DNA of 64,000 nt from an uncultured Acidobacteriota bacterium (GCA_964474425.1 CAYYTC010000006.1:20503-84502); one strand, 5' to 3'; positions 13,279 through 30,458 are shown, counted from the stretch's first letter. Numbers and translations are program-made. The notes: generated by a model not told the origin, from the sequence alone.

Positions 13279-13738
13279 AAGCCGTCTGCTCCCCACATCC
13301 AGCCGGTCCTGCATTCTTCAACGAATTCCACCTTCCACCTTCTACCTTCCACCTTTTTCATCTCCCGACCTCCGTCTTCCATGTCCCGCCGTCCTTTTGC
13401 GGCCTATCATGAGCACAGCCCTTTGTCGGGTATTGATCCAATAATCCCTGATTTTTGCCTAACTTTATATGCCGCAACTATGCTAATATTGCATGGCTAT
13501 TTCAAAATGATAGGGCAACGAGGTTTTTGTTGAAAATACTGACGGGATTGAGCGTCTGGTGCATCCAATGGAACGATATTTGGCTGCGGCCAGGTAAGCG
13601 TTTAAACGGACAGAATTGAGGCGGCCGCAGCAAGCACTGGTGAATTCCGCAGTAAAGCTTGTGTAGTCACTACCGCAGATAAAAATCGGCATAGCCAGAC
13701 TGCAGCGGGTGTTCGACTCTGTCATCGGAGCATGAACC

Positions 13739-14317
13739 TTGACAGTGGAAAAGTTCAGCCCCTTTGTTCAAAGTGATGCTGAAAAGTGCATCGGCTGCAG
13801 GACTTGCGAGATTGCCTGTTCACTTGCCCATTCCCCGGATCCTGTGAAGACCGCCGGTGCGGCCGTCGGAGCATTCGTTCCCCGGCTGTTCGTGATGGTT
13901 ACGGCCGAAGTGGCGGCTCCTGTGCAATGCCATCACTGCGAAAACGCGCCCTGCCGCAATATTTGCCAGATGTCGGCTATCTCCCGGGTGGACGGCAGGA
14001 CGGTTGTCGATACCGGACGGTGCGTCGGCTGCAAGCTCTGTTTTATGGCGTGCCCCTTTGGGGCCATTGAATTTGTCCCCCAGCCCGACGGCACAAGGCC
14101 GATACATCTCGGAGCCTATTCCAGTCCGGAGGAATGGGCGAGCCGGCGCTGTCACCGCGCCAACAACTGCGACTTGTGCGTGAACCGCAAGGGTGGACCG
14201 GCCTGCGTCGAAACCTGTCCTCAAAAAGCGCTTGACCTTGTCAATCCGGCGGCGGAAAAAAACCGGCGCAATACTGAAGCGGCGCTGGACTTGCTGCTGC
14301 AGATGGGCGGAGATTAG
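13739..14317 (+). CDS. HycB/HydN-type 4x[4Fe-4S] ferredoxin
   Basis: 192 aa with four CxxCxxCxxxCP-type motifs (CIGCRTCEIAC, CHHCENAPCRNIC, CVGCKLCFMACP, CDLCVNRKGGPACVETCP). Confidence 0.8.
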   Translation: MTVEKFSPFVQSDAEKCIGCRTCEIACSLAHSPDPVKTAGAAVGAFVPRLFVMVTAEVAAPVQCHHCENAPCRNICQMSAISRVDGRTVVDTGRCVGCKLCFMACPFGAIEFVPQPDGTRPIHLGAYSSPEEWASRRCHRANNCDLCVNRKGGPACVETCPQKALDLVNPAAEKNRRNTEAALDLLLQMGGD

Positions 14318-14335
14318 CAAAAGCAAAAAGGAGTA

Positions 14336-15724
14336 GTGCGGGTGACTGAAGGATTTAGCCGGATTGATCAGGAGCTGTGCACCGGGTGCGACAACTGCAC
14401 CGCGACATGCCCCGCCGATGCCATCAGCGGTCAAAAGTATCAACCTCACGCGATTTCCGAGGAGCGTTGCGTGAGCTGCGGGCGATGCGTTCAAATCTGC
14501 AACGCTTACGACTCGATTTTCCAGAAATACCCGACACCGCGGGACCTGAGGCTGAAGCAACGGGACCTTCCGCCCGGATTCCCTGAGCCCCTGTTTGCGG
14601 CTTATGACCGGCGCTTTACCTCGAGTGTCAAGGCGGCCCTGGCCGATCCCGGCCTTGTGGTGATGGCTCAACTGGGACCGGCCGTATGCGGGCCCCTGGC
14701 CGAGGATTTCGGTTTGCCCGCGGGATCCCTGACGGAAGGGCGGGTCGTGGCAGCGCTGAAAAAGGCCGGCTTTCGGAAGGTATATAGCTTTTCGCTTCCG
14801 GCGGCGATGGCGGTGCTCGAAGAAGCGCATGAACTTGTCGAGCGGCTGCGGGAGGGCAGAATTTTGCCCGTTATCAACTCCTCGTGTCCGGCGGGAGTCA
14901 AGTTTATCGAGCAGTCCCACCCGGAGCTGATCCACTATATTGCGGGAAATAAATCCCCGCACCAGATAGCGGGCACGCTTGTCAAGTCGCGCGCTGCAAA
15001 AATGCTCCAGCTTTCTCCGGAAAGGATTTACAGCGTTTCCATCGGCCCCTGCAATTCCCGGAAATTTGAGGCAAGCCGGCCGGAGATGGCCTCCGGAGGA
15101 CGCCGGGACATCGATGCGGTATTGACGTCCCGGGATCTGGCTCATCTGATCAAGGACCTCGGAATCGACCTGTCTTCAATGGGTGAAGAAAGCCACGACC
15201 ATGAACTCCCCCCCCTGGTCGGGATGGATAGGGTCTACGGCATCCCGGGAGACATTACCGAAGCGGTCCTGAAGGCCGGTTACGGGCTTCTCGCGCCCTC
15301 GGCGGGACAGGCGCTGGAAGTGCAGTTTACCGAAACGGAAACCGAGGGAGTCCGCGCCGCCTCCGTAAAACTGGATGCATTCAGCGTAAAGGCAGTCGCC
15401 CTTACCGGGCTGCCGAATGCGGTCCCATTTCTCGATGCGATAAAGGCCGGCAAAAGCGACATCGCGTTTCTGGAAATCCTGGCATGCCCGATGGGCTGTG
15501 TCAGCGGCGGGGGACAGCCCAAGATCCTGCTGCCCCAGGATAAAACAGCCGCCTACCTGGAACGGGCGCGGCTCAACGGTGTCCCGGATGCCCGGGCCCT
15601 GCACAGTCTCGCGCGCAACGCTGAAGTGCAGAGGATCTATCGCGAGTGTTTTGGCAGACCCTGCGGCAACAAATCGAATCACGGCATTTATACGCAGTAT
15701 GTGGAGCGAAAACTGAGCCAATGA
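14336..15724 (+). CDS. [FeFe]-hydrogenase H-domain protein (M2-type: two N-terminal ferredoxin clusters) with non-canonical L1 motif
   Basis: L2 GPCNSRKFEA and L3 EILACPMGCVSGGGQP match the H-cluster signatures MPCxxKxxE and ExMACxxGCxxGGGQP. L1 reads NSSCPAG instead of TSCCPGW. N-terminus CTGCDNCTATCP and CVSCGRCVQIC. Confidence 0.8.
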   Translation: MRVTEGFSRIDQELCTGCDNCTATCPADAISGQKYQPHAISEERCVSCGRCVQICNAYDSIFQKYPTPRDLRLKQRDLPPGFPEPLFAAYDRRFTSSVKAALADPGLVVMAQLGPAVCGPLAEDFGLPAGSLTEGRVVAALKKAGFRKVYSFSLPAAMAVLEEAHELVERLREGRILPVINSSCPAGVKFIEQSHPELIHYIAGNKSPHQIAGTLVKSRAAKMLQLSPERIYSVSIGPCNSRKFEASRPEMASGGRRDIDAVLTSRDLAHLIKDLGIDLSSMGEESHDHELPPLVGMDRVYGIPGDITEAVLKAGYGLLAPSAGQALEVQFTETETEGVRAASVKLDAFSVKAVALTGLPNAVPFLDAIKAGKSDIAFLEILACPMGCVSGGGQPKILLPQDKTAAYLERARLNGVPDARALHSLARNAEVQRIYRECFGRPCGNKSNHGIYTQYVERKLSQ

Positions 15725-15770
15725 GGAATCGGGCGGTCCTTTTCGGAAGCGGATCGCCGCGGGGCGAAAC

Positions 15771-16250
15771 ATGGGATTTTTGCTGATAACACCGGAAGAC
15801 TGCACCAGTTGCCATTCGTGCGAACTGGCCTGTTCTCTGTTTCACGAAGAGGAGTTTAACCCTGCCCGCGCCCGCGTCGAGGTTCGGACGTGGGACGACA
15901 ACACGCACTCCGCCTCCGTAATGTGCCTGCAATGTGAAGAAGCCGGATGCATGGCCATCTGCCCGGCGGGAGCCATTACTGAAGACAAAACCACAGGGGC
16001 GCGCCTGGTCAACGGGTCGAAGTGCATCAAGTGCCGGATGTGCATCCAGATCTGTCCGTTCGGCAGCAATTTCTTCGACCTCAAGGGCCGCAAAATACTC
16101 AAATGCGACCTTTGCGACGGGGACCCGCAGTGCGCGAGGGTCTGCCCCTCGGGCGCCATCGTGTACGGGGAGCGGAATACGGCGAACACGGCGAAGCGGC
16201 AGCAGGCGGCCGCCAAGCTGAAAGTAATTTCCCGGGGAGCGAGAAGGTAA
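15771..16250 (+). CDS. 4x[4Fe-4S] ferredoxin (HycB-like)
   Basis: 159 aa, four Cys clusters (CTSCHSCELAC, CLQCEEAGCMAICP, CIKCRMCIQICP, CDLCDGDPQCARVCP). Confidence 0.75.
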   Translation: MGFLLITPEDCTSCHSCELACSLFHEEEFNPARARVEVRTWDDNTHSASVMCLQCEEAGCMAICPAGAITEDKTTGARLVNGSKCIKCRMCIQICPFGSNFFDLKGRKILKCDLCDGDPQCARVCPSGAIVYGERNTANTAKRQQAAAKLKVISRGARR

Positions 16251-17563
16251 TGTTCGGTTGGTGTGGACGATTGTTGCGGGTGAATCTGACGGACGGCGCC
16301 ATCGCCAGGGAATCCCTGGACCCTGAAGCCGCCAGAACCTTTCTTGGCGGGCGCGGGCTCGGGACCCGGCTGCATGCAAAAGAGGTCTCTTCCTCCTGCG
16401 AACCGCTGGGCGCCGCAAACCATCTGGTGTTTATCACCGGCCCTCTGACGGGCACCGTCGCGCCTAACGGCGGCCGCTACACGGTTGTCACCCGCGTGCC
16501 GCCCGAAGGCTCCATTGCCGCGGCCAGCATCAGCGGGAAATGGGGTTCGGAGCTCAAATTCGCCGGATTCGACGGGATCATCGTCGAGGGCAGAGCGGCT
16601 GAACCGTCCTATCTCTGGATTAAGGACGGCCATGCGGAATTGCGCTCCGCCGCGCGCGTTTGGGGCAAGCCGGTGAGGGAAACGACCGACCTGCTGGTCG
16701 CGGAAACGCACGAGAGATCGGTCGTTTCCTGTATCGGCCCCGCGGGCGAGAACGGCGTGAAAGGGTCGGTAATCGTCAGCGATTATTTTTCGGCTGCAGG
16801 CGGAGCGGGCGCGGGCCGGGTCATGGGCTCGAAGAATCTAAAGGCCATCGTCGTCTGCGGCACAATCGGGTTCCGTGCAGCCGATCACAGGCGGTTTCTC
16901 AAGCTGGCCACGGAATTCCGGACCTGGATGAAGACCAAACCGATTGCCGCAAGGGGCGTGCGTCTGCATGATTGCTTTCTCCGGGCGGACAGTGTCGCGT
17001 GGGATGCTGCGGCGCCCGAATCCAGGCCGGCCCGAACCAGGGGCTGCTTCGGTTGCGCAACTTCTTTTTCGTCTTTTACATTCGATGACAAAGTCAGGGC
17101 CCTGCCGCTGCTTGCGGGATCGCCGCCCGCCGAACTGGGCGAGAGGCTGAGGGAATACCGGCATTTTGCCGACCTGGGGCTGGATTTTGTCGCAGCCAAG
17201 ACCTCCCTGGCTTCTCTCGGCAAAGAGGCCGAAGCGGATCCGGCCGGGTTTGCCCGAAAGCTGGCCGCCGGCGAAATGGAAGGAACCGGAAGCATAAACG
17301 GCAATCGCGCGATGGACCGGGGAGCCTGTTTTGCTTCCGGTTACGCGGTTGCCCCGAATATCTCCCAGGGCAACGGACAGGACAGGGCGCTGAGCTGCCT
17401 GGTAAGCATTCTTGATTCCGCGGGATTGTGTCCGTTCCTTGCCGCCGGGATAGAAACAGGCACGATCGCCGGGCTGCTGAATGCGGCCACGGGAATCGAT
17501 TTTTCGCAGGAAGAAATCCTGCAGGCGGGGCAGCGCATCAGCCTGCCCGGCAACACCGACTGA
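16250..17563 (+). CDS. aldehyde:ferredoxin oxidoreductase (AOR) family protein, truncated (N-terminal AOR domain plus shortened C-terminal region)
   Basis: Start is TAATG-coupled to the preceding ferredoxin. N-domain MFGWCGRLLRVNLTDG...GGRGLG...LVFITGPLTG...KNLKAIVVCGT is typical AOR. C-terminus keeps CFGC and the DSAGLCPF (DSxGLCxF) cluster-ligand motif, but the protein is about 437 aa versus about 600 for canonical AORs. Confidence 0.65.
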   Translation: MFGWCGRLLRVNLTDGAIARESLDPEAARTFLGGRGLGTRLHAKEVSSSCEPLGAANHLVFITGPLTGTVAPNGGRYTVVTRVPPEGSIAAASISGKWGSELKFAGFDGIIVEGRAAEPSYLWIKDGHAELRSAARVWGKPVRETTDLLVAETHERSVVSCIGPAGENGVKGSVIVSDYFSAAGGAGAGRVMGSKNLKAIVVCGTIGFRAADHRRFLKLATEFRTWMKTKPIAARGVRLHDCFLRADSVAWDAAAPESRPARTRGCFGCATSFSSFTFDDKVRALPLLAGSPPAELGERLREYRHFADLGLDFVAAKTSLASLGKEAEADPAGFARKLAAGEMEGTGSINGNRAMDRGACFASGYAVAPNISQGNGQDRALSCLVSILDSAGLCPFLAAGIETGTIAGLLNAATGIDFSQEEILQAGQRISLPGNTD

Positions 17564-17628
17564 AGGCGTTGCCGAAGGGACTATGAAGAACACGTGCGCA
17601 ATGATACGCCGGTCGTTGATCTCCGCGC

Positions 17629-19038
17629 TTGGCATTCACAGGGGGTGAAGACTTGTTCCTGTTGCCTGTACTGTTAGCTGCGGCAGCAATGCTGGGTACC
17701 CTGGCCGTAGTGGTTCGCAGCTATGGCGCTGTCTGGTCCTTTGACCTGGGCACCGTGCCCTGGCTGGCCGGCCGGGAGGCCTTATTCGGCATCCGTATCG
17801 ACGGATTGAGTTCCCTGATGCTGCTGGCTATCACCGTAGTCGGCTTTCTGATCATCCTTTACTCCGGCGGATACGTGAGCGCCCGCAACCGCGAGCACCC
17901 GTCCAACGAAGGACAGGGACGGTACTATTTCTTCATGCTGCTCTTCGTTGCCGCGATGATCGGCCTGGTGATTTCGCCCAATTTCTTTCAGTTGTTCATT
18001 TTTTGGGAACTGACGACGCTCTGCTCCTGGGGTCTGATAGCCTTCTACCGCGACAGGGAAGCGCTGGGTTCCGCTTATAAGGCGCTGTTGATCACCCATG
18101 CCATGGGGCTCTTCCTCGAAGCTGGCATCATTCTCGTTTACGTCAACACCGGTTCATTCGCCTTTCCCGCCATCGAGCAGCTTTCCCCCGCGCTGAAGAC
18201 ACTGGCCGTGGTTTTCTTTGTGATCGCGGCGCTGGCGAAGGCCGCGCAGTTTCCGTTCTTCACGTGGCTTCCTACGGCCATGGCGGCCCCGACTCCGGCC
18301 AGCGCCTATCTTCATGCCGCGGCAATGGTCAAGGCCGGCATCTATCTGATAGCCCGGCTGCTGATCAGTATGAGCGTGTTCCCGCCCAAGGTCGGTGTTG
18401 TTCTCGGCGCCCTGGCGATGGTGACCATGCTGACCGCCGTGCTGCTCTACTTCGTTCAGGACGACTTGAAAAGGCTTCTTGCCTACTCCACCATTGCAAA
18501 TCTGGGCTACATGGTCCTGGGTCTTTCGCTCGGCAGCCTGGGATCCAGCCTGGCTTTGCGTGGCGGCCTGCTTCATCTCATCGGGCACTCATTCACCAAA
18601 AGCCTGCTTTTCCTGGCGGTCGGCGCGATATCGTTCGCGACCGGGACGCGCAGGATCTCAACGCTGAGCGGCCTCAACAAGAGAATGCCGCTGACTTCTT
18701 TGGCCTTCGTCCTCGGGGCTCTCGCCATCAGCGGCGTCCCTCCCTTCAACATGTTCTGGAGCAAGTTTTTCATAATTGCCGGCGCTTTTCAGCTGCATAC
18801 GGGTTGGGGGTGGACGCTCGGGCTGCTGGCACTGGTGGAAAGCGTCGCGGGATTTGCATGGTTTCTGCATGTCGTGCACAAGGTTGTTTTCGGCGCCCCG
18901 GCCCCGGCAGCCGAAGGAGCGCAGGATCCGCCCGCCGTTATGGCGATACCCTTGCTGGCGCTGATGGGCCTAATCCTGCTTTCGACCGTTTTCGCCTTGC
19001 CGATTATTGACCGGCTGGTCGGAGGATTGGGACGATGA
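17629..19038 (+). CDS. hydrogenase-4 antiporter-like membrane subunit (HyfD/NuoM/MnhD-like)
   Basis: 469 aa polytopic protein of the NuoL/M/N fold. Start codon uncertain. Confidence 0.8.
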   Translation: MAFTGGEDLFLLPVLLAAAAMLGTLAVVVRSYGAVWSFDLGTVPWLAGREALFGIRIDGLSSLMLLAITVVGFLIILYSGGYVSARNREHPSNEGQGRYYFFMLLFVAAMIGLVISPNFFQLFIFWELTTLCSWGLIAFYRDREALGSAYKALLITHAMGLFLEAGIILVYVNTGSFAFPAIEQLSPALKTLAVVFFVIAALAKAAQFPFFTWLPTAMAAPTPASAYLHAAAMVKAGIYLIARLLISMSVFPPKVGVVLGALAMVTMLTAVLLYFVQDDLKRLLAYSTIANLGYMVLGLSLGSLGSSLALRGGLLHLIGHSFTKSLLFLAVGAISFATGTRRISTLSGLNKRMPLTSLAFVLGALAISGVPPFNMFWSKFFIIAGAFQLHTGWGWTLGLLALVESVAGFAWFLHVVHKVVFGAPAPAAEGAQDPPAVMAIPLLALMGLILLSTVFALPIIDRLVGGLGR

Positions 19039-21062
19039 CCGCAATGCAAGTATTCGCCGGCTCCATGGCTGTTCTGGCCGCGACCTCCGTTCTTACGCTG
19101 CTGACGGCAGATCGCCGAAAAGTGGCCGGCGGGATTAATTTTGCCGGCACCGCCTGTGCGGCTCTGGGGATGCTGTGGCTCGCGGCCAGGGCGCTGTTTG
19201 CGGGCCCGCTGGAATTCGGGTATGGAAGCGTCCGTGTTCTGGGCCTGAGCGCACAGCTGGATTTTCGCATTGACGGCCTGAGCGCCCTTTTTCTCTCGAT
19301 TATCGCAATCCTTGTCACGGGCTCCGCTCTCTACAGCATCGGCTATCTCGATCACTACCGCCACGAAGGGCTGCGAAGGTACTATTTCCCCTTTCCGTTG
19401 TTCATGGCCGGCATGCTGGCGGTGGTGACCGCTGCCGACTGGTTCTGGTTCCTGGTTTTCTGGGAGGTCATGACGCTGACGTCCTATTTCCTGGTGGTCT
19501 TCGAAAACGACAACAAGGAAAACCTTTCGGCCGGATTCCTATATTTTTTCATGACGCATCTCACGTCGGCCGGGCTGATGGTCGCGGTGATGTTCCTGGC
19601 GAACAGGTCCGGCTCATTTGCCTTTGCGGCGCTTCCGGACCTGTTTAACAACCTTGCCTACACGAACCCGGCCGGCCTTCACCTCCTCCTGCTCCTCTTC
19701 TTCATCGCATTCGGGACCAAGGCGGGGATGTATCCCCTCGGTGTCTGGCTGCCCGCCGCGCATCCCGCGGCTCCGGCCAGCGTCAGCGCACTGCTCTCGG
19801 GCGTCATGATCAAAATCGGGGTCTACGGAATGCTGCGGGTCTTCGTCTGGATGCTCCCGGTAGTTTCGGCGGCCGTCCTCTGGGGAACCGTTATCGCCAC
19901 CTTCGGGATTATTTCCATGGCGGTCGGGACACTGCGCGCGCTGGGTGAACACGACTGCAAAAGGCTGCTGGCCCAGAGCAGCATCGGCCAGATGGGATAC
20001 ATCCTGCTCGGTCTGGGGCTCGGCATGGTTTTCATGTCCCGCAGCCCGGTTTTCGGCGTGATCGCGCTGATCGGCTGCCTCTACCACATTGTCAATCATG
20101 CCTGCTTCAAATCCCTGCTCTTTTTCAATACCGGTTCACTGTTGTTCCGGACAGGCACGCGGAACCTGGATAAGATGGGCGGCATGATACAGCTGATGCC
20201 GGTGGCCGGGGCATGCGCCATCGTTGGAGCGCTTTCCATCGCCGGAGTCCCCCCTTTCAACGGCTTCGTCAGCAAATGGCTTCTCTACCAGAGCGCCATC
20301 TTTGGGAAGCCTGCATCCGTTTTCATCGTGTACGCCGTCATCGCAATTTTCATGAGCACGGTTACCCTGGCCTATTTCATCAAGTACCTGGGCACCGCCT
20401 ATCTCGGCACGATGCCGGAACGTTTTGCCGGCAGCCCCCACGGATCTCCCCGGTCGATGGAAATCGTGCAGCTCGTGCTCGCGGCCGGATGCCTGATGCT
20501 TGGGATCTACCCGGCGACCGTGGTTCTGGTCCTGCTGGGAGTCCTGGAACCTGCCCTGAGCATAGCCAATTCCCGTCTGGCCCAGGGGGCGCTCGGCGCT
20601 TTGCCGTGGCTCGGGATGAAGCTGGACCTGAATTCTGTAAGCACGGCCGCTGCGGGCCCCGCCATCATACTGGCGGCGCTCGCCGCCTGTGCAGGTATTG
20701 CGTATCTGATATATCGCAGCGTCCAGGTGGAGAGCCGGCCCGCATCCATCTGGAATTGCGGGGAAGTTGTTTCCGACGAAGCGGTGCGCTATCGCGCCAG
20801 CAGTTTTTACAAGCCGTTCCGGAACCTGATCAGCCCTGTGTACCGGAAAATCCGGTGGCCCCGGATTTCTCCGCCTCAATCCTTCGCGCGCAGCCTGGAC
20901 CTGGACCGCTGGTTGTACTTTCCAATAGGTTCTGCCTTTGTCCGCATCGGCAGGGCTTTCAGCAGGATTCATAACGGCGTGCCTCAGTTCTACCTCCTAT
21001 GGCAGGTGGTGGGGCTCGTCCTTTCCGTTATGTTTGTTTTCTGGTTGATGGGAGGAAAATAA
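19035..21062 (+). CDS. hydrogenase-4/formate hydrogenlyase antiporter-like membrane subunit (HyfB/HycC, NuoL-like)
   Basis: 675 aa, about 16 TM, conserved WLPxAHxAPxPVSALL motif. ATGA overlap with the upstream gene. Confidence 0.85.
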   Translation: MTAMQVFAGSMAVLAATSVLTLLTADRRKVAGGINFAGTACAALGMLWLAARALFAGPLEFGYGSVRVLGLSAQLDFRIDGLSALFLSIIAILVTGSALYSIGYLDHYRHEGLRRYYFPFPLFMAGMLAVVTAADWFWFLVFWEVMTLTSYFLVVFENDNKENLSAGFLYFFMTHLTSAGLMVAVMFLANRSGSFAFAALPDLFNNLAYTNPAGLHLLLLLFFIAFGTKAGMYPLGVWLPAAHPAAPASVSALLSGVMIKIGVYGMLRVFVWMLPVVSAAVLWGTVIATFGIISMAVGTLRALGEHDCKRLLAQSSIGQMGYILLGLGLGMVFMSRSPVFGVIALIGCLYHIVNHACFKSLLFFNTGSLLFRTGTRNLDKMGGMIQLMPVAGACAIVGALSIAGVPPFNGFVSKWLLYQSAIFGKPASVFIVYAVIAIFMSTVTLAYFIKYLGTAYLGTMPERFAGSPHGSPRSMEIVQLVLAAGCLMLGIYPATVVLVLLGVLEPALSIANSRLAQGALGALPWLGMKLDLNSVSTAAAGPAIILAALAACAGIAYLIYRSVQVESRPASIWNCGEVVSDEAVRYRASSFYKPFRNLISPVYRKIRWPRISPPQSFARSLDLDRWLYFPIGSAFVRIGRAFSRIHNGVPQFYLLWQVVGLVLSVMFVFWLMGGK

Positions 21063-22760: not shown

Positions 22761-23659
22761 CAAACATCGCTATCGGCGTCTTCAATATACTGCTGGTCCT
22801 CCTTGCCGCGCCTCTGCTGGACGGCGTTTTGCGAAAGGTGCGGGCTTTGATTCATTCGCGGCAGGGGCCTCCCGTGTTGCAGACCTATTACGACCTGGCC
22901 AAGTTGATGGTGAAAGAGGACCAGAGCGCGGTCAACAATTTCCTGTTTAATGCCGCGCCGATTGTTTGCCTGGCTTCCGTCCTGCTGGCCGCCCTTTTTA
23001 TTCCCATGGGCGGGGTGGTTCCGCTGGGATTTGCCGGGGACGCGCTGGTGCTGATGTACATCCTGACGCTGGCCCCGATCTTCCTGTGCCTGGGCGGTAT
23101 GGCTTCGGGCAGCCCTTACGCATATGTCGGCGCGAGCCGGGAAATAATGATGCTGATGGTGGTCGAGCCGGTTCTTGCGATCACGCTGATTGCCACGGCG
23201 GTCAAGGCCAACTCGCTGCTGCTTGCGAACTGCATCGAACGGTACGTGTCCGGCCCCCCGGATATTTCTCTGATTATCTGCGCCATTGCCTTCTTTCTCG
23301 CCCTCCAGCCGGAAGTCGCCAAGGTTCCTTTCGACCTGGCCGAAGCCGAACAGGAAATCATGGAGGGCCCGCTGGTCGAATATTCGGGCCGCAAGCTGGC
23401 GCTGCTCAAGTGGTCGATGTATTCCAAGCAGATTGTATTTATCGCCCTGCTGGCCGGAGTCTTCCTCCCCTGGCCCAGGACGGGATTTTTGCCGTTGAGC
23501 GTCGTATTCACGCTTTTGAAGGTCCTGGGGATCGCCGTGCTGGTGGAGGTGATCGCCCTGGTGTTCCCGCGGCTTAAGATCAACCAGGCGATCCGCTATT
23601 TCGCCATAGTGATCGCCGTCGCCTTGACGGGTTTGATACTTGCCGTCATGGGTCTATAA
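22757..23659 (+). CDS. formate hydrogenlyase membrane subunit HycD/HyfC (NuoH-like)
   Basis: GTG start overlapping the hycE stop (GTGA). N-terminus ...LLDGVLRKVRALIHSRQGPPVLQTYYDLAKL is a classic NuoH/HycD signature. Confidence 0.85.
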   Translation: MTNIAIGVFNILLVLLAAPLLDGVLRKVRALIHSRQGPPVLQTYYDLAKLMVKEDQSAVNNFLFNAAPIVCLASVLLAALFIPMGGVVPLGFAGDALVLMYILTLAPIFLCLGGMASGSPYAYVGASREIMMLMVVEPVLAITLIATAVKANSLLLANCIERYVSGPPDISLIICAIAFFLALQPEVAKVPFDLAEAEQEIMEGPLVEYSGRKLALLKWSMYSKQIVFIALLAGVFLPWPRTGFLPLSVVFTLLKVLGIAVLVEVIALVFPRLKINQAIRYFAIVIAVALTGLILAVMGL

Positions 23660-23677
23660 GGGATTCGGGAAACAACG

Positions 23678-24205
23678 ATGATACCGCTTTTGAAAGAAGC
23701 CTGGATTTGCCTGCGGGCCGGCCGCGTGACGCTGCCGTATCCGCTGAAACCGACGAAAGCTCCGCCTCGATTCCGCGGGCGCCCGAGCATCGATGGAGAC
23801 AAATGCATCGGGTGCGGCGCCTGCGCGGAAGTGTGTCCTCCACGGTTGATTACGGTCACCGATGAGGGCGCTACCCGTCGCATTTCCATGGATTATTCCC
23901 GGTGCACCTACTGCGCGCGCTGTCAGGAAATATGTCCGGTCCAGAGCGCCAGGCTCACCGAGGATTTTGAGGACGCCACAGCCGACCGCGCCGACTTGAC
24001 GGTCGCAGTGGAATTGGAACTCGCTCCGTGCAGGAACTGCGGCACGCCGTTCATCACCCGGCGAATGCTGGCCAAGCTGTCCGATGAATTCTCCCCTCCC
24101 TGGATGAAGGAAAAGCTTGAAGCTCCGGACTGGTTCCAGCTGTGCCCGGATTGCCGGCTCGAAAAAACAGGGGCCGCCATAGACAGGAGCGTCAAACATG
24201 AGTAG
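23678..24205 (+). CDS. formate hydrogenlyase 2x[4Fe-4S] subunit HycF/HyfH (NuoI-like)
   Basis: CIGCGACAEVCP and CTYCARCQEICP motifs, 175 aa. Confidence 0.85.
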   Translation: MIPLLKEAWICLRAGRVTLPYPLKPTKAPPRFRGRPSIDGDKCIGCGACAEVCPPRLITVTDEGATRRISMDYSRCTYCARCQEICPVQSARLTEDFEDATADRADLTVAVELELAPCRNCGTPFITRRMLAKLSDEFSPPWMKEKLEAPDWFQLCPDCRLEKTGAAIDRSVKHE

Positions 24206-24863
24206 CTATGCGATCATGTACATCAGCCTGCTCATGATTGTGACTTCGCTGGTGGCGATGGAGTGGCGCAGGCTTCCGGAAGCCGTTCACACATACCAGG
24301 TCCAATCGGTGCTGATTGCGCTGATCTTCGCCATTTATGCCTATTCGCTCAAAAATCCCGCGTTGTACTACTGGAGCGCCACCGCGCTGGTCAGCAAGGG
24401 GATCGTGGTTCCGTGGCTGCTTCGACGCTACGTTTTGAAAGTGCACGCAAAGGAAACCCCGCCGCTGCTGAGCCTGCTGCCGTCCCAGGCTTTCGCGATC
24501 CTGGTTTCGCTGCTGGCATTCGGCTGGGCCTTTAAGCATCACGCGGACCTGGTGCTCCTGCCCGGACTGGCCGGGGAGCCCTACCGCATGAATTCCGCGG
24601 TGGCCGCGACGGTGCTCGCCATCGGCTTTTTCGCCTTGTTGACGAGGAAGGACGCCTTCAAGATCGTCATCGGCCTGTGCCTGCTGGAGAACGGCGTTCA
24701 TATGAGCCTGATCAGCCTGGCTCCGTCCATCCCGGAAACAGCCCTGATCGGCGTGGTGACCGACGTGGTTGTCTCGGTCCTTATGCTTCTTTATATCGTC
24801 ACCGGGGTTTATCGATCGGCGGGTTCCCTCGACACATCCAACATGGCGAAGTTGCGTGGCTGA
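24198..24863 (+). CDS. hydrogenase-4 membrane subunit HyfE-like
   Basis: 221 aa, about 6 TM, position and size equivalent to HyfE between HycF and HyfF. Confidence 0.7.
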   Translation: MSSYAIMYISLLMIVTSLVAMEWRRLPEAVHTYQVQSVLIALIFAIYAYSLKNPALYYWSATALVSKGIVVPWLLRRYVLKVHAKETPPLLSLLPSQAFAILVSLLAFGWAFKHHADLVLLPGLAGEPYRMNSAVAATVLAIGFFALLTRKDAFKIVIGLCLLENGVHMSLISLAPSIPETALIGVVTDVVVSVLMLLYIVTGVYRSAGSLDTSNMAKLRG

Positions 24864-24878
24864 AAGAGGATTCTCAAA

Positions 24879-26483
24879 GTGACAGAATCGATGCTATTAA
24901 TCTGGCTGTTCCTGATACCCGCAATAGCGGCGCTAGCGGAATATGCCCTGGGCAGAAAATATCCGGCTTCGGCCGGCAGGATCGCGATCCTGGGATCGAC
25001 GGCGGCATTCGGCGTTTCCGTGGCGATGGTCTGCCGGCTGCTGGGCGGCGATCGCCTGGTCGCAATGGGACACCAGCTGCACGCCGACGCTTTCGCGGGC
25101 TTTGTGGCCTTGGTCGTTTCCTTCGTGGGGTGGGCCACGACGATCTTCGCCTATCCATACCTGCGCCATGAAGTGAAGGAAGGGAAAGTCGCCGTCGAGC
25201 GCCTGCCGCTTTACTATGTCTGGAGCATGGTGTTCCTCAGCACGATGACGGCGGTGACCGTCAACAACAACATCATCATGATGTATGTGCTCGTCGAGGC
25301 AACGACCCTGGCATCCGCTCTCCTGGTGACCTTTTACTGGAAGCCTGAATCCCTGGAGGCCGGCTACAAATACCTGCTGCTGTGTTCGGTAGGCATTACG
25401 ATCGGCCTGTTGGGCTGCGTGATCATTTACGCTTCGGCCGTCCCCCTGGTTGGCGGCGCCAATGCGATGCTGATAACCGAAATCGCCAAGGTCGCCGGAA
25501 AGTTCCCGCCTATGGTCGTGCTCGTGGCGGGAGTCCTCCTGATCATCGGTTTTGGATCCAAGGCGGGTTTTGTACCCTTCCATGCGTGGCTGCCCGACGC
25601 TCATTCGCAATCCCCCAGCCCGGTCAGCGCCCTGCTGTCCGGTGTGACCATAAAGGTTGCGATTTACGCCATCGCACGGATAGCAACGCTTTTTTACCCG
25701 GGTCACAGCGCGCTGGGAACCTTCGGGATTATCCTGGGGGCGGTCACGATGCTGGCGGGGATAGTGATTGCCTATCAGCAGACCGACCTGAAGCGCATGC
25801 TGGCCTACAGCAGCGTCAGCCAGATGGGCTATATAATACTCGGGCTCAGCATCGGCACCTACCTCGGCTTCTACGGCGCCATCTATCACCTGCTCAACCA
25901 CGCGGTCAACAAGGCGATGCTCTTCCTGTGCAGCGGCATACTGCTGTATTCCTTCGGCACAACAGACATGCAGCTATTGGGCGCGAAGAAGCACCGCCGT
26001 CTGACGGCGGTCTGTTTTTTCATCGGTGCGCTCGGGATCGGGGGCATGCCGCCCCTGAATGGGTTCTGGAGCAAATTCGGAATTTACGTGGCGGCGGCCC
26101 AGGCGCACCTGTGGTGGGCCTTTGGCATCGCCCTATTCACCAGCCTGCTGACGCTCGCGGTTTTGATCCGGGCCGGCGCCCGCATGTTTCTGCAGGACAG
26201 CCACGCCGTCCACGCCTACGAATTGCCTTTTCAGCCTGCGGCAATTGCCGCCCCAACCGCGGCCGGCGCGATAACGGCCATGCAGGATGCTCACGCGTCG
26301 GGCGGGGCAGGGCCCGAAAGAGCGCATCCCTGCCCGGTGGCCATGAATGCCGTGATTGTGGCCATGACGCTGCTGATCCTCGCTACGGGCCTGAATCTGG
26401 GATTCGTGAACCGGCTGATCGATTTATCAGTCAAAGCTCTGCTGCAGCAGATGGCGGGAGGTTCGGTCGATGTCACTCTATAA
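24879..26483 (+). CDS. hydrogenase-4 antiporter-like membrane subunit HyfF (NuoN/L-like)
   Basis: 534 aa, GTG start, conserved HAWLPDAHSQSPSPVSALLSG motif. Confidence 0.8.
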   Translation: MTESMLLIWLFLIPAIAALAEYALGRKYPASAGRIAILGSTAAFGVSVAMVCRLLGGDRLVAMGHQLHADAFAGFVALVVSFVGWATTIFAYPYLRHEVKEGKVAVERLPLYYVWSMVFLSTMTAVTVNNNIIMMYVLVEATTLASALLVTFYWKPESLEAGYKYLLLCSVGITIGLLGCVIIYASAVPLVGGANAMLITEIAKVAGKFPPMVVLVAGVLLIIGFGSKAGFVPFHAWLPDAHSQSPSPVSALLSGVTIKVAIYAIARIATLFYPGHSALGTFGIILGAVTMLAGIVIAYQQTDLKRMLAYSSVSQMGYIILGLSIGTYLGFYGAIYHLLNHAVNKAMLFLCSGILLYSFGTTDMQLLGAKKHRRLTAVCFFIGALGIGGMPPLNGFWSKFGIYVAAAQAHLWWAFGIALFTSLLTLAVLIRAGARMFLQDSHAVHAYELPFQPAAIAAPTAAGAITAMQDAHASGGAGPERAHPCPVAMNAVIVAMTLLILATGLNLGFVNRLIDLSVKALLQQMAGGSVDVTL

Positions 26484-26967
26484 AACGCTGGTCGAGAAAT
26501 TTTTCAGGCGCTCCTTATGGGTCTACCATGCGAATGCAGGCGGATGCAACGGGTGCGACATCGAGGAGATCAACGCATTCACTCCTTACTACGATGCGGA
26601 GCGGTTCGGGCTGAAGCTGGTGGGCTCGCCGCGGCATGCCGATATCCTGCTGGTTTCAGGGCCTGTGACGCGCAACGTGGAATCACGGCTGAAGCTTCTT
26701 TATGAAGCGGTGCCGAATCCGAAGGTGGTGATCGCGTGCGGGTCTTGTGCCGTGGGCGGCGGGCTGTGGTTTGATTCGTATCACGTGCTCGGGGGGTGCG
26801 ATAAAGTCATCCCGGTGGATTTCTATATCCCGGGGTGCCCTCCCAGGCCGGAAGCGATCCTTTGGGGCGCAGCCGTTGCCATGGGCCTGGTCAAGGGGAA
26901 GGCGCAGCCTTACCGCTACCGCCAGGAGGATGCGGAGGCCGAGGCGAAGGCGAAGCTGGCTTCATGA
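26470..26967 (+). CDS. group-4 [NiFe]-hydrogenase small subunit HycG/HyfI (NuoB-like)
   Basis: Proximal-cluster ligands CNGCDIE, GSCAVGGG, PGCPP. 165 aa. Confidence 0.9.
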   Translation: MSLYKTLVEKFFRRSLWVYHANAGGCNGCDIEEINAFTPYYDAERFGLKLVGSPRHADILLVSGPVTRNVESRLKLLYEAVPNPKVVIACGSCAVGGGLWFDSYHVLGGCDKVIPVDFYIPGCPPRPEAILWGAAVAMGLVKGKAQPYRYRQEDAEAEAKAKLAS

Positions 26968-27446
26968 TGCGCGAAGCGGCGGAGTTGGAAAAGGGACTGA
27001 AGCAGCGGCTGAAAGGCAGGGTGCTGCTGGTAGGCGCCGGCAACACGCTTCGCGGCGACGATGGGGCAGGTCCGGCGGTTGTGTCCCTGTTGGAAGGCAG
27101 AGTGACGGCGAGCCTGCTCGATGCCGGGGAAGCGCCGGAAAACTATTCGGGCAGGATCCTGGCTGAACAGCCGGATACGGTTGTCCTGATTGATGCGGCC
27201 GATTTTGGGGCGGCGCCGGGGGATCTGGCCATTCTGGAAGCGGAAGATATGGCGAAGGTGGGCGTGTCCACGCATCGGATCCCTTTGGAGGTTTTGTTCC
27301 GCTACATAAGGGAAAATAGCGGAGCGGACATGTTTGCGCTCGGGATACAGCCGGCCGGGATCGGATTTGGAGAATCCCTGAGCCCCGCCGTATCAAATTC
27401 GGTAAAGGCGCTGGCGGAGATCTTGCGGCGGCTGCTCCCGGCCTAA
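26964..27446 (+). CDS. hydrogenase maturation endopeptidase HycI-type
   Basis: LLVGAGNTLRGDDGAGP motif. ATGA overlap with hycG. Confidence 0.8.
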   Translation: MMREAAELEKGLKQRLKGRVLLVGAGNTLRGDDGAGPAVVSLLEGRVTASLLDAGEAPENYSGRILAEQPDTVVLIDAADFGAAPGDLAILEAEDMAKVGVSTHRIPLEVLFRYIRENSGADMFALGIQPAGIGFGESLSPAVSNSVKALAEILRRLLPA

Positions 27447-27476
27447 GAAAAAACTAGGAACGCAGATTTTTATTTT

Positions 27477-27508
27477 CAGCGTTCAACGTTCAAACGTTCA
27501 ACGTTTTT
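27477..27508 (+). repeat. tandem heptamer repeat (CGTTCAA)x3 followed by a T-run, in the hycI-hycB intergenic gap
   Basis: cagCGTTCAACGTTCAAACGTTCAACGTTTTTat. Contains self-complementary AACGTT cores, so small hairpins followed by TTTTT are possible. Confidence 0.5.
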
Positions 27509-27521
27509 ATCGGCAGGTGTA

Positions 27522-28049
27522 ATGATGAACACACTGGTTATCGCGGATCCGGGAAAATGTATCGGCTGCCGCACCTGTGAGGTGGCCTGTGTGCTGGCCC
27601 ATTCCGCACCGGATGCATTGTCAAAACTGGCTCCCGCATTCTTTATTCCCCGCATGAAGGTGGTCAAAACATCCAGGGTGAGCACTCCGGTCCAGTGCCG
27701 GCAATGCGAGGATGCTCCCTGCGCCAAGGTTTGCGCTACGGGCGCGCTGATCCACAGCCACGACTCGATACAGGTGATCCAGTCGCGCTGTATCGGCTGC
27801 AAGAGCTGTGTCATGGCCTGTCCCTACGGCGCCATGGAAGTGGTGACGCACGAATCGTTCGCCGACCGGCGTCCCCCGGCAGGCGCCAACGTTGTGGAAG
27901 CTTATAAGTGCGACCTCTGCGTCCACCGCTCCCAGGGCCCGGCCTGCATTGAAGTGTGCCCGACCAAAGCGCTCTACACCATCGACGCCAAGGTGCTCGA
28001 AGACAAGGCGCGCAAGCGGCGGGAGCAGGCGGCGCTTGCCCAATTGTAA
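27522..28049 (+). CDS. formate hydrogenlyase ferredoxin subunit HycB/HyfA-type (4x[4Fe-4S])
   Basis: 175 aa with CIGCRTCEVAC, CRQCEDAPCAKVC, CIGCKSCVMACP, CDLCVHRSQGPACIEVCP. Confidence 0.8.
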   Translation: MMNTLVIADPGKCIGCRTCEVACVLAHSAPDALSKLAPAFFIPRMKVVKTSRVSTPVQCRQCEDAPCAKVCATGALIHSHDSIQVIQSRCIGCKSCVMACPYGAMEVVTHESFADRRPPAGANVVEAYKCDLCVHRSQGPACIEVCPTKALYTIDAKVLEDKARKRREQAALAQL

Positions 28050-28119
28050 AAGGAAGAAGCCGGGAGCCGGAATTTGAAAGCTGTTTTTTCCCGGCTTCTC
28101 AATCATTCACACGAAGAGG

Positions 28120-30264
28120 ATGGAAGTGATGTCGGAAAAAGTGCTGACCGTATGTCCCTATTGCGGCGCCGGGTGCATGCTCAACCTGCTGGTTGACAAC
28201 GGCACGATTGTGGGAGCTGAACCTGCGCCCGGACGGACCAATCAAAGCGAGCTCTGCCTGAAGGGCTACTATGGCTGGGATTTTCTCAACGATACCAACC
28301 GTCTCACGCCGCGATTGAAGAAGCCCCTGATCCGCCGCCGCCGGGACGGCAAATTCGAGGAAGCCTCGTGGTTTGAGGCCATCGATTTTGCGGCCGGCAA
28401 GCTGCAGGAGATCAAGCACAAATACGGGCCGGATGCGATCATGCTCACCGGATCTGCCCGTGGACCGGGGAACGAAGCCAACTACGTCATGCAGAAGTTC
28501 GCCCGCGCGGTGATCGGCACAAACAATATCGATCACTGCGCCCGCGTCTGACATGCCCCTTCCGTGGCCGGGCTGGCCGCGACGCTGGGTAACGGGGCGA
28601 TGAGCAACTCCATCCCTGAAATCGAGGACACGCGGTGTGTCTTTATCTTCGGATATAACGCCGCCGATTCTCATCCGATTGTGGCGCGCCGCATCGTCAA
28701 TGCGAAACAGAAGGGCGCCAAGATCGTTGTGGTCGACCCGCGCATGACGGAGTCGGCGCGGATCGCTGACCTGTGGCTGCCGATACGCAACGGTACCAAC
28801 ATGGTCCTGGTGAATGCGTTCGGATATGTGCTGATCGAGGAAGGTCTGTATAACAGGGACTATGTCGCCAGCTATACCCAGGGCTTTGAGCAGTACAAGG
28901 CCATTGTTTCCAAATACACTCCCGAGTACGCGGAACAGGTTACGGGGATCCCCGCCAAAGATATACGCGAGGCGATGAGGATTTACGCGGCGGCTCCGAG
29001 CGCCTTCATCCTGTACGGCATGGGCGTGACGCACTATGGACAGGCGGTCGATGTCGTCAAGGGCCTGTCCGGCCTGGCGCTGCTTACGGGCAACTTCGGC
29101 CGGCCCAATGTCGGGATCGGCCCCGTGCGCGGCCAGAACAACGTCCAGGGAGCCTGCGATCACGGCGCGCTTCCCAACGTTTTCCCCGGATACCAGCCTG
29201 TTACGGACGAAGCCATACGCGCCAAGTTCGAAAAAGCCTGGGGCGTCTCCAGGCTGCCGGACAAGGTGGGTTGCACGCTGACGGATGTCCCCCACCTGGT
29301 TAAGGAAGGCAAGCTGAGGGCCTACTACATTTTCGGCGAGGACCTGGTTCAGACCGATCCCGATTCCGCTTCCCTCAGGGAAACCCTGAAGAGCATGGAG
29401 TTTGTTATTGTGCAGGATATCTTCATGAACAAGACCGCCCTGCATGCCGACGTGATTTTCCCCGCGACATCGTGGGGGGAGCACGAAGGGACCTATTCCA
29501 CGGCCGACCGGGGCTTCCAGCGCTTCCGCAAAGCCCTGGAGCCCAAGGGGGATGTGAAGACGGACTGGGAGATTATCTCCATGATGGCTACGGCCATGGG
29601 CTATCCCATGAAATACAGCAACACCGAGGAGATCTGGAACGAAATGCGTTCCCTGTGCCCGTCTTTTGCGGGTGTTACCTACGAAAGACTCGATAAGCTG
29701 GGCACCCTGCAATGGCCGTGCCCCAGCGAGGATCATCCCGGCACTCCCTATCTTTACGCGGGCAACAAATTCAATACGCCCGACGGCAAAGGACTGCTTT
29801 TTGCCGCGGAGTGGCGGCCGCCGCTCGAGCAGCCCGATAAGGACTACCCTCTGGTTTTATCGACCGTCCGCGAGGTCGGGCATTATTCCGCGCGCACCAT
29901 GACCGGCAACTGCGCCGCTCTGCAGGTCCTGGCGGATGAGCCGGGATATCTGCAGATCAGCGGCAAGGACGCCGAACGCCTGGGAATCCGGGACCAGGAA
30001 CTGGTCTGGATTTCGTCGCGCCGCGGCAAAGTGATCAGCCGGGCTCAGGTGACCGATCGCGTCAATATTGGCGCGGTATACATGACGTATCAGTGGTGGG
30101 TGGGCGCCTGCAACGAGCTGACCATTCATCACGTGGATCCGATATCCAAAACCCCGGAATACAAGTATTGCGCCGTGGCGGTGGAAAAGATAGACGACCA
30201 GGAGCAGGCCGAACGCTACGTTCAGGAGGAATACAGTCGTTTCAAAACCGCCATGAACATATAG
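28120..30264 (+). CDS. fdhF: formate dehydrogenase H (FdhF-type, molybdopterin), selenocysteine-containing; UGA at 28549-28551 is read as Sec
   Basis: N-terminal CPYCGAGC [4Fe-4S] motif. The two supplied ORFs (28120..28551 and 28564..30264) are in the same frame and separated only by TGA. Context NIDHCARV-U-HAPSVAGL matches the E. coli FdhF Sec140 region (...HCARV-U-HGPSVAGL...). Confidence 0.9.
28563..28581 (+). promoter_or_regulatory. candidate bacterial SECIS hairpin 11 nt downstream of the fdhF UGA
   Basis: CGUGGCC-GGGCU-GGCCGCG (7-bp stem including one G-U, 5-nt loop), placed as in known bacterial SECIS elements. Confidence 0.5.
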
Positions 30265-30331
30265 GGTTCTTTCGGCCGCCACCCTGGATTGTAGCTTTTC
30301 TTTGGTTGCGCAGCGGCGGCCGAAAGAATCC
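30264..30331 (+). terminator. long perfect hairpin (17-bp stem, 34-nt loop) immediately after the fdhF stop; candidate terminator or structured RNA element between convergent genes
   Basis: GGGTTCTTTCGGCCGCC ... GGCGGCCGAAAGAATCC. All 17 positions pair (one G-U). Confidence 0.45.
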
Positions 30332-30458
30332 TGTGCGATTCGCGACAGGAACCATCTATCGAAAAAGGGGAGTCGCAGGCATTACCAGACTCAGAGTGGC
30401 CGATCGCCAATATAAATGGCGGAGATTGCATGCATTCACGGATTCTATGGGTAGTGCA

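Follow-up and report, generated by a model that had tools for sequence, protein, structure and literature searches.

A conserved ferredoxin, [FeFe]-hydrogenase-like and aldehyde oxidoreductase-like module at the head of a formate hydrogenlyase-2 operon in an Acidobacteriota bacterium

Introduction

Formate hydrogenlyase-2 (FHL-2), also named hydrogenase-4, is known from Escherichia coli and Pectobacterium atrosepticum, and it is to this system that the core of the locus described here belongs. The locus is an operon of 15 genes at positions 13739–30264 on the + strand of a 64 000-nucleotide stretch of DNA from an uncultured Acidobacteriota bacterium (GCA_964474425.1, CAYYTC010000006.1:20503-84502; the whole stretch is referred to below as the window). 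In common with FHL-2, the operon encodes homologues of HyfB–I with three antiporter-like subunits, a protease of the HycI type, a ferredoxin of the HycB/HyfA type and a selenocysteine-containing FdhF as the electron donor. Unlike the E. coli and P. atrosepticum operons, it has the gene order D-B-G-C-H-E-F-I, carries fdhF and hycI inside the operon, has no HyfJ, HyfR or FocB encoded in the window and is preceded at hyfD by four extra genes. These four genes (the module) encode a ferredoxin (Fdx1), a homologue of the [FeFe]-hydrogenase subunit HydA2 (the HydA2-like protein), a second ferredoxin (Fdx2) and a shortened homologue of aldehyde oxidoreductase (AOR; the mini-AOR). The HydA2-like protein and the mini-AOR are referred to as the heads.

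Each half of the module has its own described relatives. HDCR, the hydrogen-dependent CO2 reductase of Acetobacterium woodii and Thermoanaerobacter kivui (FdhF-HycB3-HycB4-HydA2; PDB entry 7QV7), likewise combines HydA2, the ferredoxins HycB3 and HycB4 and a selenocysteine-containing FdhF, all of which have co-encoded homologues in the present locus. Here, unlike in HDCR, the [FeFe] pocket is remodelled and the module is joined to the operon of a membrane [NiFe] hydrogenase. By definition the [FeFe] subunit is the only hydrogenase of an HDCR, a soluble or filamentous enzyme, whereas a complete Hyf operon, for a membrane-bound [NiFe] enzyme, always follows the module. In a review of HDCR, none of the 18 HDCR-type clusters was linked to hyf. 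The second half resembles AorABC of Aromatoleum aromaticum (8C0Z) and an electron-bifurcating WOR (9MQX), in that the gene for an AorA-type ferredoxin lies upstream of, and is translationally coupled to, that for a protein of the AOR fold; the protein has retained domain 1 of AOR together with Arg76 and both D-x-x-G-L-[C/D] loops. The mini-AOR differs in having 437 residues instead of about 600–616 and Phe in place of the third cluster Cys, and neither AorC nor any other flavoprotein accompanies it. Judged by its sequence, the locus is not to be filed as HDCR or as AorAB, as it lacks defining features of both (the canonical H-cluster motifs, the four-Cys motif and catalytic residues).

Archaeal hybrids of [FeFe] and [NiFe] hydrogenases (groups F/G with 3f/3g) have been described in a paper that considered them remarkable, the two classes being 'not known to associate' (Greening et al., 2024; PMC11216029). 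In these hybrids HydA forms a fusion with the small subunit of a group 3 enzyme, which is soluble and has diaphorase subunits, and the H-cluster was shown to be active. The locus shares with these hybrids the presence of both classes in one conserved cluster; it differs in that the two are separate proteins, the host is bacterial, the partner is a membrane-bound group 4a enzyme, an NAD(P) module is lacking and the pocket departs from the canonical one. A further parallel is provided by NuoG/Nqo3 and Nar1/NARF, in which folds related to hydrogenases and to molybdo- or tungstoenzymes have been kept only as iron–sulfur carriers or scaffolds, in the case of NuoG within a complex that is kin to the group 4 hydrogenases. 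The relic domains of NuoG go back to the N-terminal, F-cluster part of [FeFe] hydrogenases and to a formate dehydrogenase fold; in the present locus, unlike NuoG, it is the H-domain itself and the AOR fold that are retained, as separate subunits.

A full-text literature search, with most subscription journals outside its coverage, found no description of a ferredoxin–[FeFe]–ferredoxin–AOR module on hyf operons, in agreement with an earlier interpretation of the window made without database searches (the sequence-only reading), which had considered the architecture undescribed. A study of peatland Acidobacteria mentioned only an 'fdhF, hyf operon'.

Materials and methods

Proteins were assigned to families with Pfam and NCBIfam profiles and by sequence searches of the PDB. 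Related loci were obtained by exact-protein look-up of genomic contexts and by a metagenome scan based on alignment to the family-specific C-terminal part of the mini-AOR, which contributed 19 loci. The 15 window proteins were then mapped by tblastn onto 30 loci, of which about 20 were non-redundant.

The H-cluster pocket was read, in CpI numbering, from an alignment of 113 full-length [FeFe] homologues, comprising 45 canonical sequences of the HDCR clade, 56 of Acidobacteria type and 12 of Rhodospirillum rubrum type. The latter two groups (56 + 12) were counted as Hyf-linked, being clades whose sampled members adjoin hyf. The mini-AOR was compared with 59 canonical AORs at the 240 positions conserved in at least 90% of them.

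Results and discussion

Organization of the operon

The 15 co-directional, tightly packed genes are arranged in the order Fdx1, HydA2-like, Fdx2, mini-AOR, HyfD-B-G-C-H-E-F-I, HycI, Fdx3, FdhF, as listed below (all on the + strand).

13739–14317, + strand: Fdx1, polyferredoxin of the HycB/HydN type (Pfam Fer4 families; NCBIfam HydN, 135 bits)
14336–15724, + strand: HydA2-like protein (Fe_hyd_lg_C, PF02906, 224 bits) with two N-terminal 4Fe-4S motifs
15771–16250, + strand: Fdx2, polyferredoxin of the AorA type, with 16 Cys and four [4Fe-4S] motifs
16250–17563, + strand: mini-AOR, AorB/AOR homologue of 437 residues; domain 1 intact, domains 2 and 3 eroded and shortened
17629–19038, + strand: HyfD, antiporter-like membrane subunit (NCBIfam hydrogenase 4 subunit D, 554.7 bits; cutoff 430)
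19035–21062, + strand: HyfB, antiporter-like membrane subunit with a C-terminal extension (NCBIfam hydrogenase 4 subunit B, 499 bits, 1–667, full length)
21063–22760, + strand: HyfG/HycE, [NiFe] large subunit, a NuoC–NuoD fusion (Complex1_30kDa, NiFeSe_Hases, Complex1_49kDa)
22757–23659, + strand: HyfC/HycD, NuoH-like membrane subunit (NADHdh, PF00146, 200 bits)
23678–24205, + strand: HyfH/HycF, NuoI-like 2×[4Fe-4S] protein (NCBIfam FHL iron–sulfur subunit, 133 bits; HyfH, 116 bits)
24198–24863, + strand: HyfE, membrane subunit (NCBIfam hydrogenase 4 membrane subunit, 123.7 bits, full length)
24879–26483, + strand: HyfF, antiporter-like membrane subunit (NCBIfam hydrogenase 4 subunit F, 328 bits)
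26470–26967, + strand: HyfI/HycG, NuoB-like small subunit (NCBIfam NuoB family, 142 bits)
26964–27446, + strand: HycI, maturation endopeptidase (TIGR00072, 110.7 bits; TIGR00142 hycI, 101.9 bits)
27522–28049, + strand: Fdx3, polyferredoxin of the HydN/HycB type directly upstream of fdhF (NCBIfam HydN, 206.7 bits)
28120–30264, + strand: FdhF, formate dehydrogenase H, a selenoprotein of 714 residues read through an in-frame TGA at 28549–28551

The sequence-only reading had described 15 genes on one strand with overlapping or short junctions, and these were found as described, including the couplings TAATG at 16248–16252, ATGA at 19035 and 26964 and GTGA at 22757. The widest intergenic gaps in the operon are 65, 75 and 70 nucleotides.

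The core was likewise confirmed as a Hyf-type (group 4a, FHL-2) formate hydrogenlyase, every defining feature that can be tested in a sequence having been found. HyfG matched E. coli HycE (7z0s_E) with an E value of 1e-139; it carries the nickel-binding motifs C236GIC and C526FSC, and about 30 residues beyond DPCFSCTER form an extension for proteolytic maturation. The three antiporter-like subunits (HyfB, HyfD and HyfF), together with HyfC and HyfE, make up the extended arm that separates Hyf from Hyc. Fdx3 has 16 Cys in four [4Fe-4S] motifs and matched HycB4 of HDCR (3e-35), HycB3 and E. coli HycB in the PDB. The selenocysteine motif of FdhF is CARV-U-HAPSVAG, and TIGR01591 fitted both halves of the protein in register (169 and 712 bits, model positions 1–128 and 135–672), the score of 712 bits exceeding the cutoff. 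A hairpin that begins about 11 nucleotides past the UGA is statistically not distinctive. These features place the locus, from a member of the Acidobacteriota, among the formate hydrogenlyase-2 operons (Hyf-type, group 4a [NiFe]). Two CxxC pairs, C118/C121 and C156/C159, were also observed in HyfH beyond its two 4Fe-4S motifs; they could bind an additional metal site.

Linkage of the module to hyf

In all 30 loci, including that of R. rubrum, the order Fdx1-[FeFe]-(FocA)-Fdx2-miniAOR-hyfDBGCHEFI-hycI was identical. Every contig that extended upstream of the mini-AOR gene carried Fdx2, the [FeFe] homologue and Fdx1, and every contig that extended downstream carried HyfD, HyfB, HyfG and onwards; the mini-AOR homologues shared contigs with the [FeFe] homologues. 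The four-gene module was not found without hyf in any of the non-redundant related loci. The flanking genes vary between lineages (LigD, GalK, a LysR regulator, hypFCDE). A canonical HydA2, that of Acetonema longum, is encoded in a classical HDCR cluster beside ACS/CODH, with neither hyf nor AOR.

The spacing between the mini-AOR gene and hyfD ranges in relatives from an overlap to about 120 nucleotides, with gaps of 2–3 nucleotides between the called genes in two loci (L003 and L005) and an overlap in that of R. rubrum (L089), in which the four homologues lie within 9345–14257. In the window the junction is as follows.

17564–17628, + strand: module/hyfD junction, 65 nucleotides

A search of the + strand at 17564–17628 found nothing resembling a terminator or a promoter, and the RNA fold of this stretch was no better than those of shuffled sequences (z = +1.1). 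The hyfD start at or near 17629 is real, since the similarity of HyfD proteins from relatives begins at query residues 1–6. The assignment of the module to the hyf operon in the sequence-only reading is therefore borne out: wherever a related locus reaches far enough, hyfD directly follows the module, and neither a promoter or terminator of its own nor a copy unlinked to hyf, which together that reading had taken as grounds for separating the two, was found. The arrangement is not unique to this genome; it recurs in loci of soil Acidobacteriota and in the long-sequenced chromosome of R. rubrum.

In several relatives, among them R. rubrum, a gene for a FocA formate channel lies between the [FeFe]-like gene and the Fdx2 gene, at the following positions.

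8534–9403 in loci L003 and L004: FocA insertion
11468–12400 in locus L089: FocA insertion
11467–12447 in locus L090: FocA insertion

In one lineage an FhlA-like sigma-54 activator with GAF and PAS domains is encoded just upstream (L003, 3934–5874). The window has neither FocA nor the activator. The FocA insertions and the sigma-54/GAF activator tie the module to formate metabolism.

In ten non-redundant loci the mean identity was lowest in the operon for the two heads, at 57.6% for the HydA2-like protein and 55.5% for the mini-AOR; their partner ferredoxins gave 68.8 and 76.7% and the Hyf core 68–87%. In a distant relative (L091, 13732–21249) the four-gene module is intact and hyf is present as many short fragments, owing either to a decaying hydrogenase or to a long-read assembly with indel errors.

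The HydA2-like protein and Fdx1

Fdx1 contains 17 Cys, 16 of them within four [4Fe-4S] motifs, and its PDB matches were HycB4 of HDCR (4e-43), HycB3 (4e-33) and E. coli HycB (7e-32). The HydA2-like protein aligned with HydA2 of T. kivui HDCR (7qv7_D) over residues 5–459, its full length, with an E value of 1e-124; Pfam detected only Fer4 families, Fe_hyd_lg_C and a weak match to Fe_hyd_SSU. Its gene probably starts at the GTG at 14342, since the database copy of the protein (P0121) has 460 residues.

In the canonical HydA2 clade (n = 45) the motifs TSCCPxW, MPCxxKxxE, FGxTGGVME and ExMxCP are invariant or nearly so (at least 39 of the 45 sequences). In the Hyf-linked sequences the ligand Cys residues of the H-cluster (C300, C355, C499 and C503) are invariant in 68 of 68, and E282, R286, S319, E361 and GGGQP are also kept. 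Around them the pocket is systematically changed: A230G/D, C299S, W303A, M353G/A, K358R/H, G418C, G422D and M424A/T/S. Position 299 is Ser in 65 of the 68 and otherwise Ala, position 358 is Arg in 56 and His in 12, and position 353 is Gly, Ala or Val; M497L is found in the Acidobacteria-type clade and E279Q in part of the Hyf-linked sequences. The window protein has C299S, K358R, M353G, G418C, G422D and M497L. Its pocket motifs read NSSCPAG, GPCNSRKFE and EILACPMGCVSGGGQP, and the motifs TSCCPxW, MPCxxKxxE and ExMxCPxGCxxGGGQP that define the H-cluster site of HDCR were not found in it.

In model [FeFe] enzymes protons are relayed by Cys299 and a cyanide ligand is held by Lys358, and C299S and K358 variants of these enzymes are nearly inactive. 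Earlier studies, as reviewed in PMC4967309, held that the R. rubrum [FeFe] enzyme is 'probably inactive or play[s] a different role', on the ground that Hyd maturases are missing from that genome.

The mini-AOR and Fdx2

The best PDB matches of Fdx2 were AorA (8c0z_C, 2e-34), the iron–sulfur subunit of 9MQX (9mqx_E, 1e-31) and the WOR5 iron–sulfur subunit. The stop codon of its gene overlaps the start codon of the mini-AOR gene (TAATG).

Pfam matched AFOR_N to the mini-AOR over the whole profile (233 bits, positions 1–199 of 199) and AFOR_C only over profile positions 228–315. The AlphaFold2 model was of high confidence (pLDDT 87.8, pTM 0.91), and a Foldseek search with it gave significant matches to AORs only, with a probability of 1.00 and query-normalized TM-scores of 0.65–0.76 (0.73–0.76 for the top three). 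The protein belongs to a family with, among the matches, 54 full-length members of about 390–480 residues (typically 435–440) that share about 44–68% identity with it; below this family the matches are canonical AORs of about 600 residues, alignable over the N-terminal 240 residues or so only. A pseudogene or an assembly artefact was considered and ruled out by the 54 conserved full-length members and the confident AlphaFold2 model. The 'truncated AOR-family protein' of the sequence-only reading is thus indeed a shortened AOR homologue, but it is a conserved family member and not the product of a broken gene.

Conservation is confined largely to domain 1, in which 71 of the 88 conserved positions are kept. 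Domain 2 keeps ten of 71 (22 deleted) and domain 3 keeps 13 of 81 (35 deleted), so that for the two together 23 of 152 are kept, 57 deleted and 72 changed. The C-terminal 75 or so residues of canonical AORs are missing, as are several internal segments. AORs bind a [4Fe-4S] cluster through a four-Cys motif, C-x2-C-x3-C...C, found in 99% of the family (PMC10413684). Of these ligands C288, C291 and C494 are kept and C295 is replaced by Phe in 53 of the 54 members; a further invariant Cys, C360, has as its counterpart in canonical AORs a conserved Cys that is not a ligand. The tungsten cofactor of AorB is contacted by residues that include Arg75, Gly94, Arg181, Asp361, Asp504 and Cys509 (PMC10413684). 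Among such contacts the mini-AOR keeps Arg76, Asp346 (loop 1), Asp489 and Cys494 (loop 2) and shows the changes Gly95 to Ser, Arg181 to Ser, Leu495 to Pro and Asn93 to Ser. At the positions of the catalytic residues of Pyrococcus furiosus AOR, Glu313 and His448, there is a change or a deletion: the GEGPEYE segment is altered or lost, Met or another residue stands in place of H449 and Ala in place of R451. To judge from these residues, the mini-AOR is not a conventional aldehyde oxidoreductase.

Proposed role of the module

The sequence-only reading had spoken of a soluble [FeFe] hydrogenase and an AOR-like module, and of a possible supercomplex, for example a confurcating one. Both heads have lost defining catalytic features, and a confurcating or three-enzyme catalytic supercomplex is therefore not the best-supported reading; moreover, the flavin- or NAD(P)-binding module that confurcation needs is not encoded in the operon. 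A syntrophic setting, also suggested there, does not fit the source, a member of the Acidobacteriota that is not a known syntroph: its NusA clusters at 90% identity or more with NusA of Acidobacteriota, and a relative of the mini-AOR with 64% identity is annotated as Acidobacteriota.

We favour, with about an even chance of its being right, the reading that the module extends or branches the electron wire of FHL and that the heads, instead of acting as an additional hydrogenase and an aldehyde oxidoreductase, serve as caps or docking sites. By homology to E. coli FHL, FdhF would oxidize formate and pass the electrons through a four-cluster ferredoxin of the HycB/HydN type to HyfH, HyfI and the [NiFe] site of HyfG, where H2 would be made, the membrane arm of HyfB, HyfC, HyfD, HyfE and HyfF coupling electron flow to ion translocation. 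The module would add two pairs, each of a four-cluster ferredoxin and a large head, of which the first is homologous to the hydrogenase arm of HDCR (HycB with HydA2) and the second to AorA–AorB of the nanowire-forming AORs. AorA and the HycB3/4 ferredoxins stack through their C-terminal helices into conductive filaments that carry the heads (PMC10413684). The three ferredoxins of the window each have intact ligands for four clusters (16 motif Cys each), and their PDB alignments reach near the C termini; as homologues of one another they might chain together like their relatives in the HDCR and AorAB filaments. Such a chain would lengthen or branch the iron–sulfur wire of the peripheral arm, with the remodelled heads as cluster-bearing caps or as entry points for other redox partners, for example ferredoxin. 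A precedent for relic domains that are hydrogenase-like and molybdoenzyme-like and have no cofactor is NuoG of complex I. The sequences show the gene content, the conserved linkage, the intact cluster ligands of the wires and the lost catalytic hallmarks of the heads; physical association, wire formation and non-catalytic heads are what we infer.

Several points weigh against this proposal. The association of the module with FHL is supported by gene order alone. In the HydA2-like family Ser299, Arg/His358, Cys418 and Asp422 are strongly conserved and the proton-path residues E282, R286 and S319 invariant, which points to a remodelled site with a retained specific function and not to decay. Both of the pterin-binding D-x-x-G-L-[C/D] loops, and Arg76 as well, are present in the mini-AOR, so that a pterin cofactor is possible. 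Titles by Kim and co-workers from 2008 reportedly credit the 'Fe-only hydrogenase of R. rubrum' with H2 production, and if the HydA2-like protein is meant, it may be active. The absence of maturases is documented for R. rubrum only, and at second hand (PMC4967309). The invariance of the H-cluster Cys residues, E282, R286, S319, E361 and GGGQP in 68 sequences, the lack of drift at the replaced pocket positions and the retained pterin loops and Arg76 also favour a true multi-catalytic hybrid, in which an active, unusual [FeFe] site (with a Ser relay and Arg/His358) and an active, minimal pterin-containing mini-AOR operate side by side. Electrons from formate might then go either to the [NiFe] site, which pumps ions, or to an uncoupled, soluble H2 site, as in HDCR, and the wire might also be fed from a third substrate, such as an aldehyde or an acid, or H2 turned over at a tungsten site. 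Precedents are the archaeal [FeFe]–[NiFe] hybrids (PMC11216029) and the homologous AOR of A. aromaticum, which is reported to oxidize H2 (PMC9295118). Against this stand the changes to Cys299, Lys358, Met353 and the TGGVME loop, all (near-)invariant in the canonical HydA2 clade and all altered here, the reported lack of maturases in R. rubrum (PMC4967309), the loss from the mini-AOR of the catalytic Glu and His residues, of the third cluster Cys and of 57 conserved positions, and the faster evolution of the heads compared with the remaining operon; nor is the energetic logic of two H2-producing sites on one wire obvious. We consider such a hybrid possible but doubtful. Taken furthest, the locus would be the first bacterial membrane-bound [FeFe]–[NiFe] hybrid, a multi-substrate supercomplex with an H-domain of a new class and a pterin-containing mini-AOR as a third head, which is less probable still. 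In that case the Ser299/Arg-His358/Cys418/Asp422 pocket might carry out H2 or hydride chemistry or bind another metal, independently of HydEFG, and the heads would be wired by the stacked polyferredoxins to the ion-pumping Hyf complex, with formate, H2, aldehyde or ferredoxin as substrates.

That the module acts in regulation or assembly, the HydA2-like protein being an H2 or redox sensor or a Nar1-like iron–sulfur carrier and the mini-AOR a chaperone or scaffold for FHL-2, we regard as unlikely. Eukaryotic Nar1, a HydA homologue without the H-cluster that functions in iron–sulfur protein biogenesis, offers a precedent; the substitutions at C299, M353 and M497 are, as we take it, reminiscent of those in putative sensory [FeFe] hydrogenases, and the lower conservation of the heads would suit accessory factors. 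Sensory [FeFe] hydrogenases of groups C and D, however, are marked by added PAS, kinase or phosphatase domains or by linkage to a regulator, a feature not found here: none of the four proteins showed a PAS, kinase, phosphatase or DNA-binding domain in the Pfam and NCBIfam searches, and the neighbours are structural genes, which also leaves the H2-sensing appendage proposed in the sequence-only reading without a signalling domain. A dedicated 16-Cys ferredoxin for each head, like the wire subunits of HDCR and AOR, exceeds the needs of a sensor or chaperone, and a dedicated maturation protease, HycI, is already encoded. Very unlikely indeed is an independent neighbour, that is, a separate soluble HDCR-like or AOR-like enzyme with its own transcription. 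The 65-nucleotide gap at 17564–17628 would allow it, and the HycB-like/HydA2-like and AorA-like/AOR-like pairs do resemble self-sufficient soluble enzymes. Yet linkage is 100% and the order constant in Acidobacteriota-type and R. rubrum-type loci with varied flanks, the gap shrinks to 2–3 nucleotides (L003, L005) or to an overlap (L089) in relatives, no terminator or promoter signal was found at the junction and the sole formate dehydrogenase available to an HDCR-like enzyme sits at the far end of the hyf genes.

Transcription signals and neighbouring genes

The operon is flanked by the following features.

13201–13738, + strand: leader, non-coding, 538 nucleotides, after the upstream peptidase gene; no convincing + strand open reading frame
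30263–30335, + strand: long, perfect hairpin directly 3' of fdhF, without a clear U-tract

The leader is presumed to hold the promoter and regulatory region. It was searched for a sigma-54 consensus and for a + strand sigma-70-like site, and nothing above chance was found; a tandem TTCCACC repeat (×4.3) lies at 13326–13355. A second tandem repeat, TTCAACG (×4.3), which creates repeated AACGTT palindromes, occupies 27475–27505 in the 75-nucleotide gap between the hycI and Fdx3 genes and could be an array to which a regulator binds or a point of internal control for the Fdx3–fdhF pair. Between these two genes, at 28055–28098, a hairpin with an internal T-run (z = -2.05; nine of 200 shuffles equally stable) may be an attenuator or a processing site. 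The hairpin at 30263–30335 has a folding energy of -46 kcal/mol (z = -6.8), and none of 200 shuffles was as stable; it is probably the operon terminator or an mRNA-stabilizing element, and the transcription unit likely ends there. The gene that follows fdhF and this hairpin is on the opposite strand. Rfam at gathering thresholds returned two tRNAs only, and no SECIS family was matched 3' of the UGA.

The 64 kb window was searched for hydE/F/G, hyp, selA/B/D and fhlA-like genes and none was found, only housekeeping or unrelated genes. Adjoining the leader, at 11449–13200 (+ strand), is a gene for a secreted papain-like cysteine peptidase, in which the peptidase part precedes two repeats of the fibronectin-III-like type and a domain at the C terminus. 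At 31994–32524 (- strand), downstream of the operon by about 1.7 kb, is one for an AbiEii-like nucleotidyltransferase (a type IV toxin–antitoxin or abortive-infection toxin). A zinc-ribbon protein of about 252 residues (DZR, Zn_ribbon_TFIIB, Zn_ribbon_3) is encoded at 10323–11081 (- strand), a few kilobases upstream of the module; a similar gene lies at such a distance upstream of the module in a relative with a 6.9-Mb contig (L001, 3850–4611, - strand), and this gene may be a conserved neighbour of the module.

Implications

FHL and its relatives are the closest living models for the origin of complex I and are targets for biological H2 production and CO2 capture. The locus represents a conserved variant of FHL-2, known from Acidobacteriota and from Rhodospirillum and so from no fewer than two lineages of distant relationship, that has recruited modules from two nanowire-forming enzyme systems, HDCR and AOR, and in which the catalytic heads have been remodelled. 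It suggests a route by which redox complexes gain 'relic' subunits poor in cofactors, as in NuoG of complex I. It also supplies a function-linked context for the R. rubrum [FeFe] homologue, which was earlier dismissed as probably inactive for want of maturases; the tractable genetics of R. rubrum open the question to direct testing there. If the heads are active, the locus would add to the archaeal hybrids another instance, of quite another kind, in which [FeFe] and [NiFe] hydrogenases associate.

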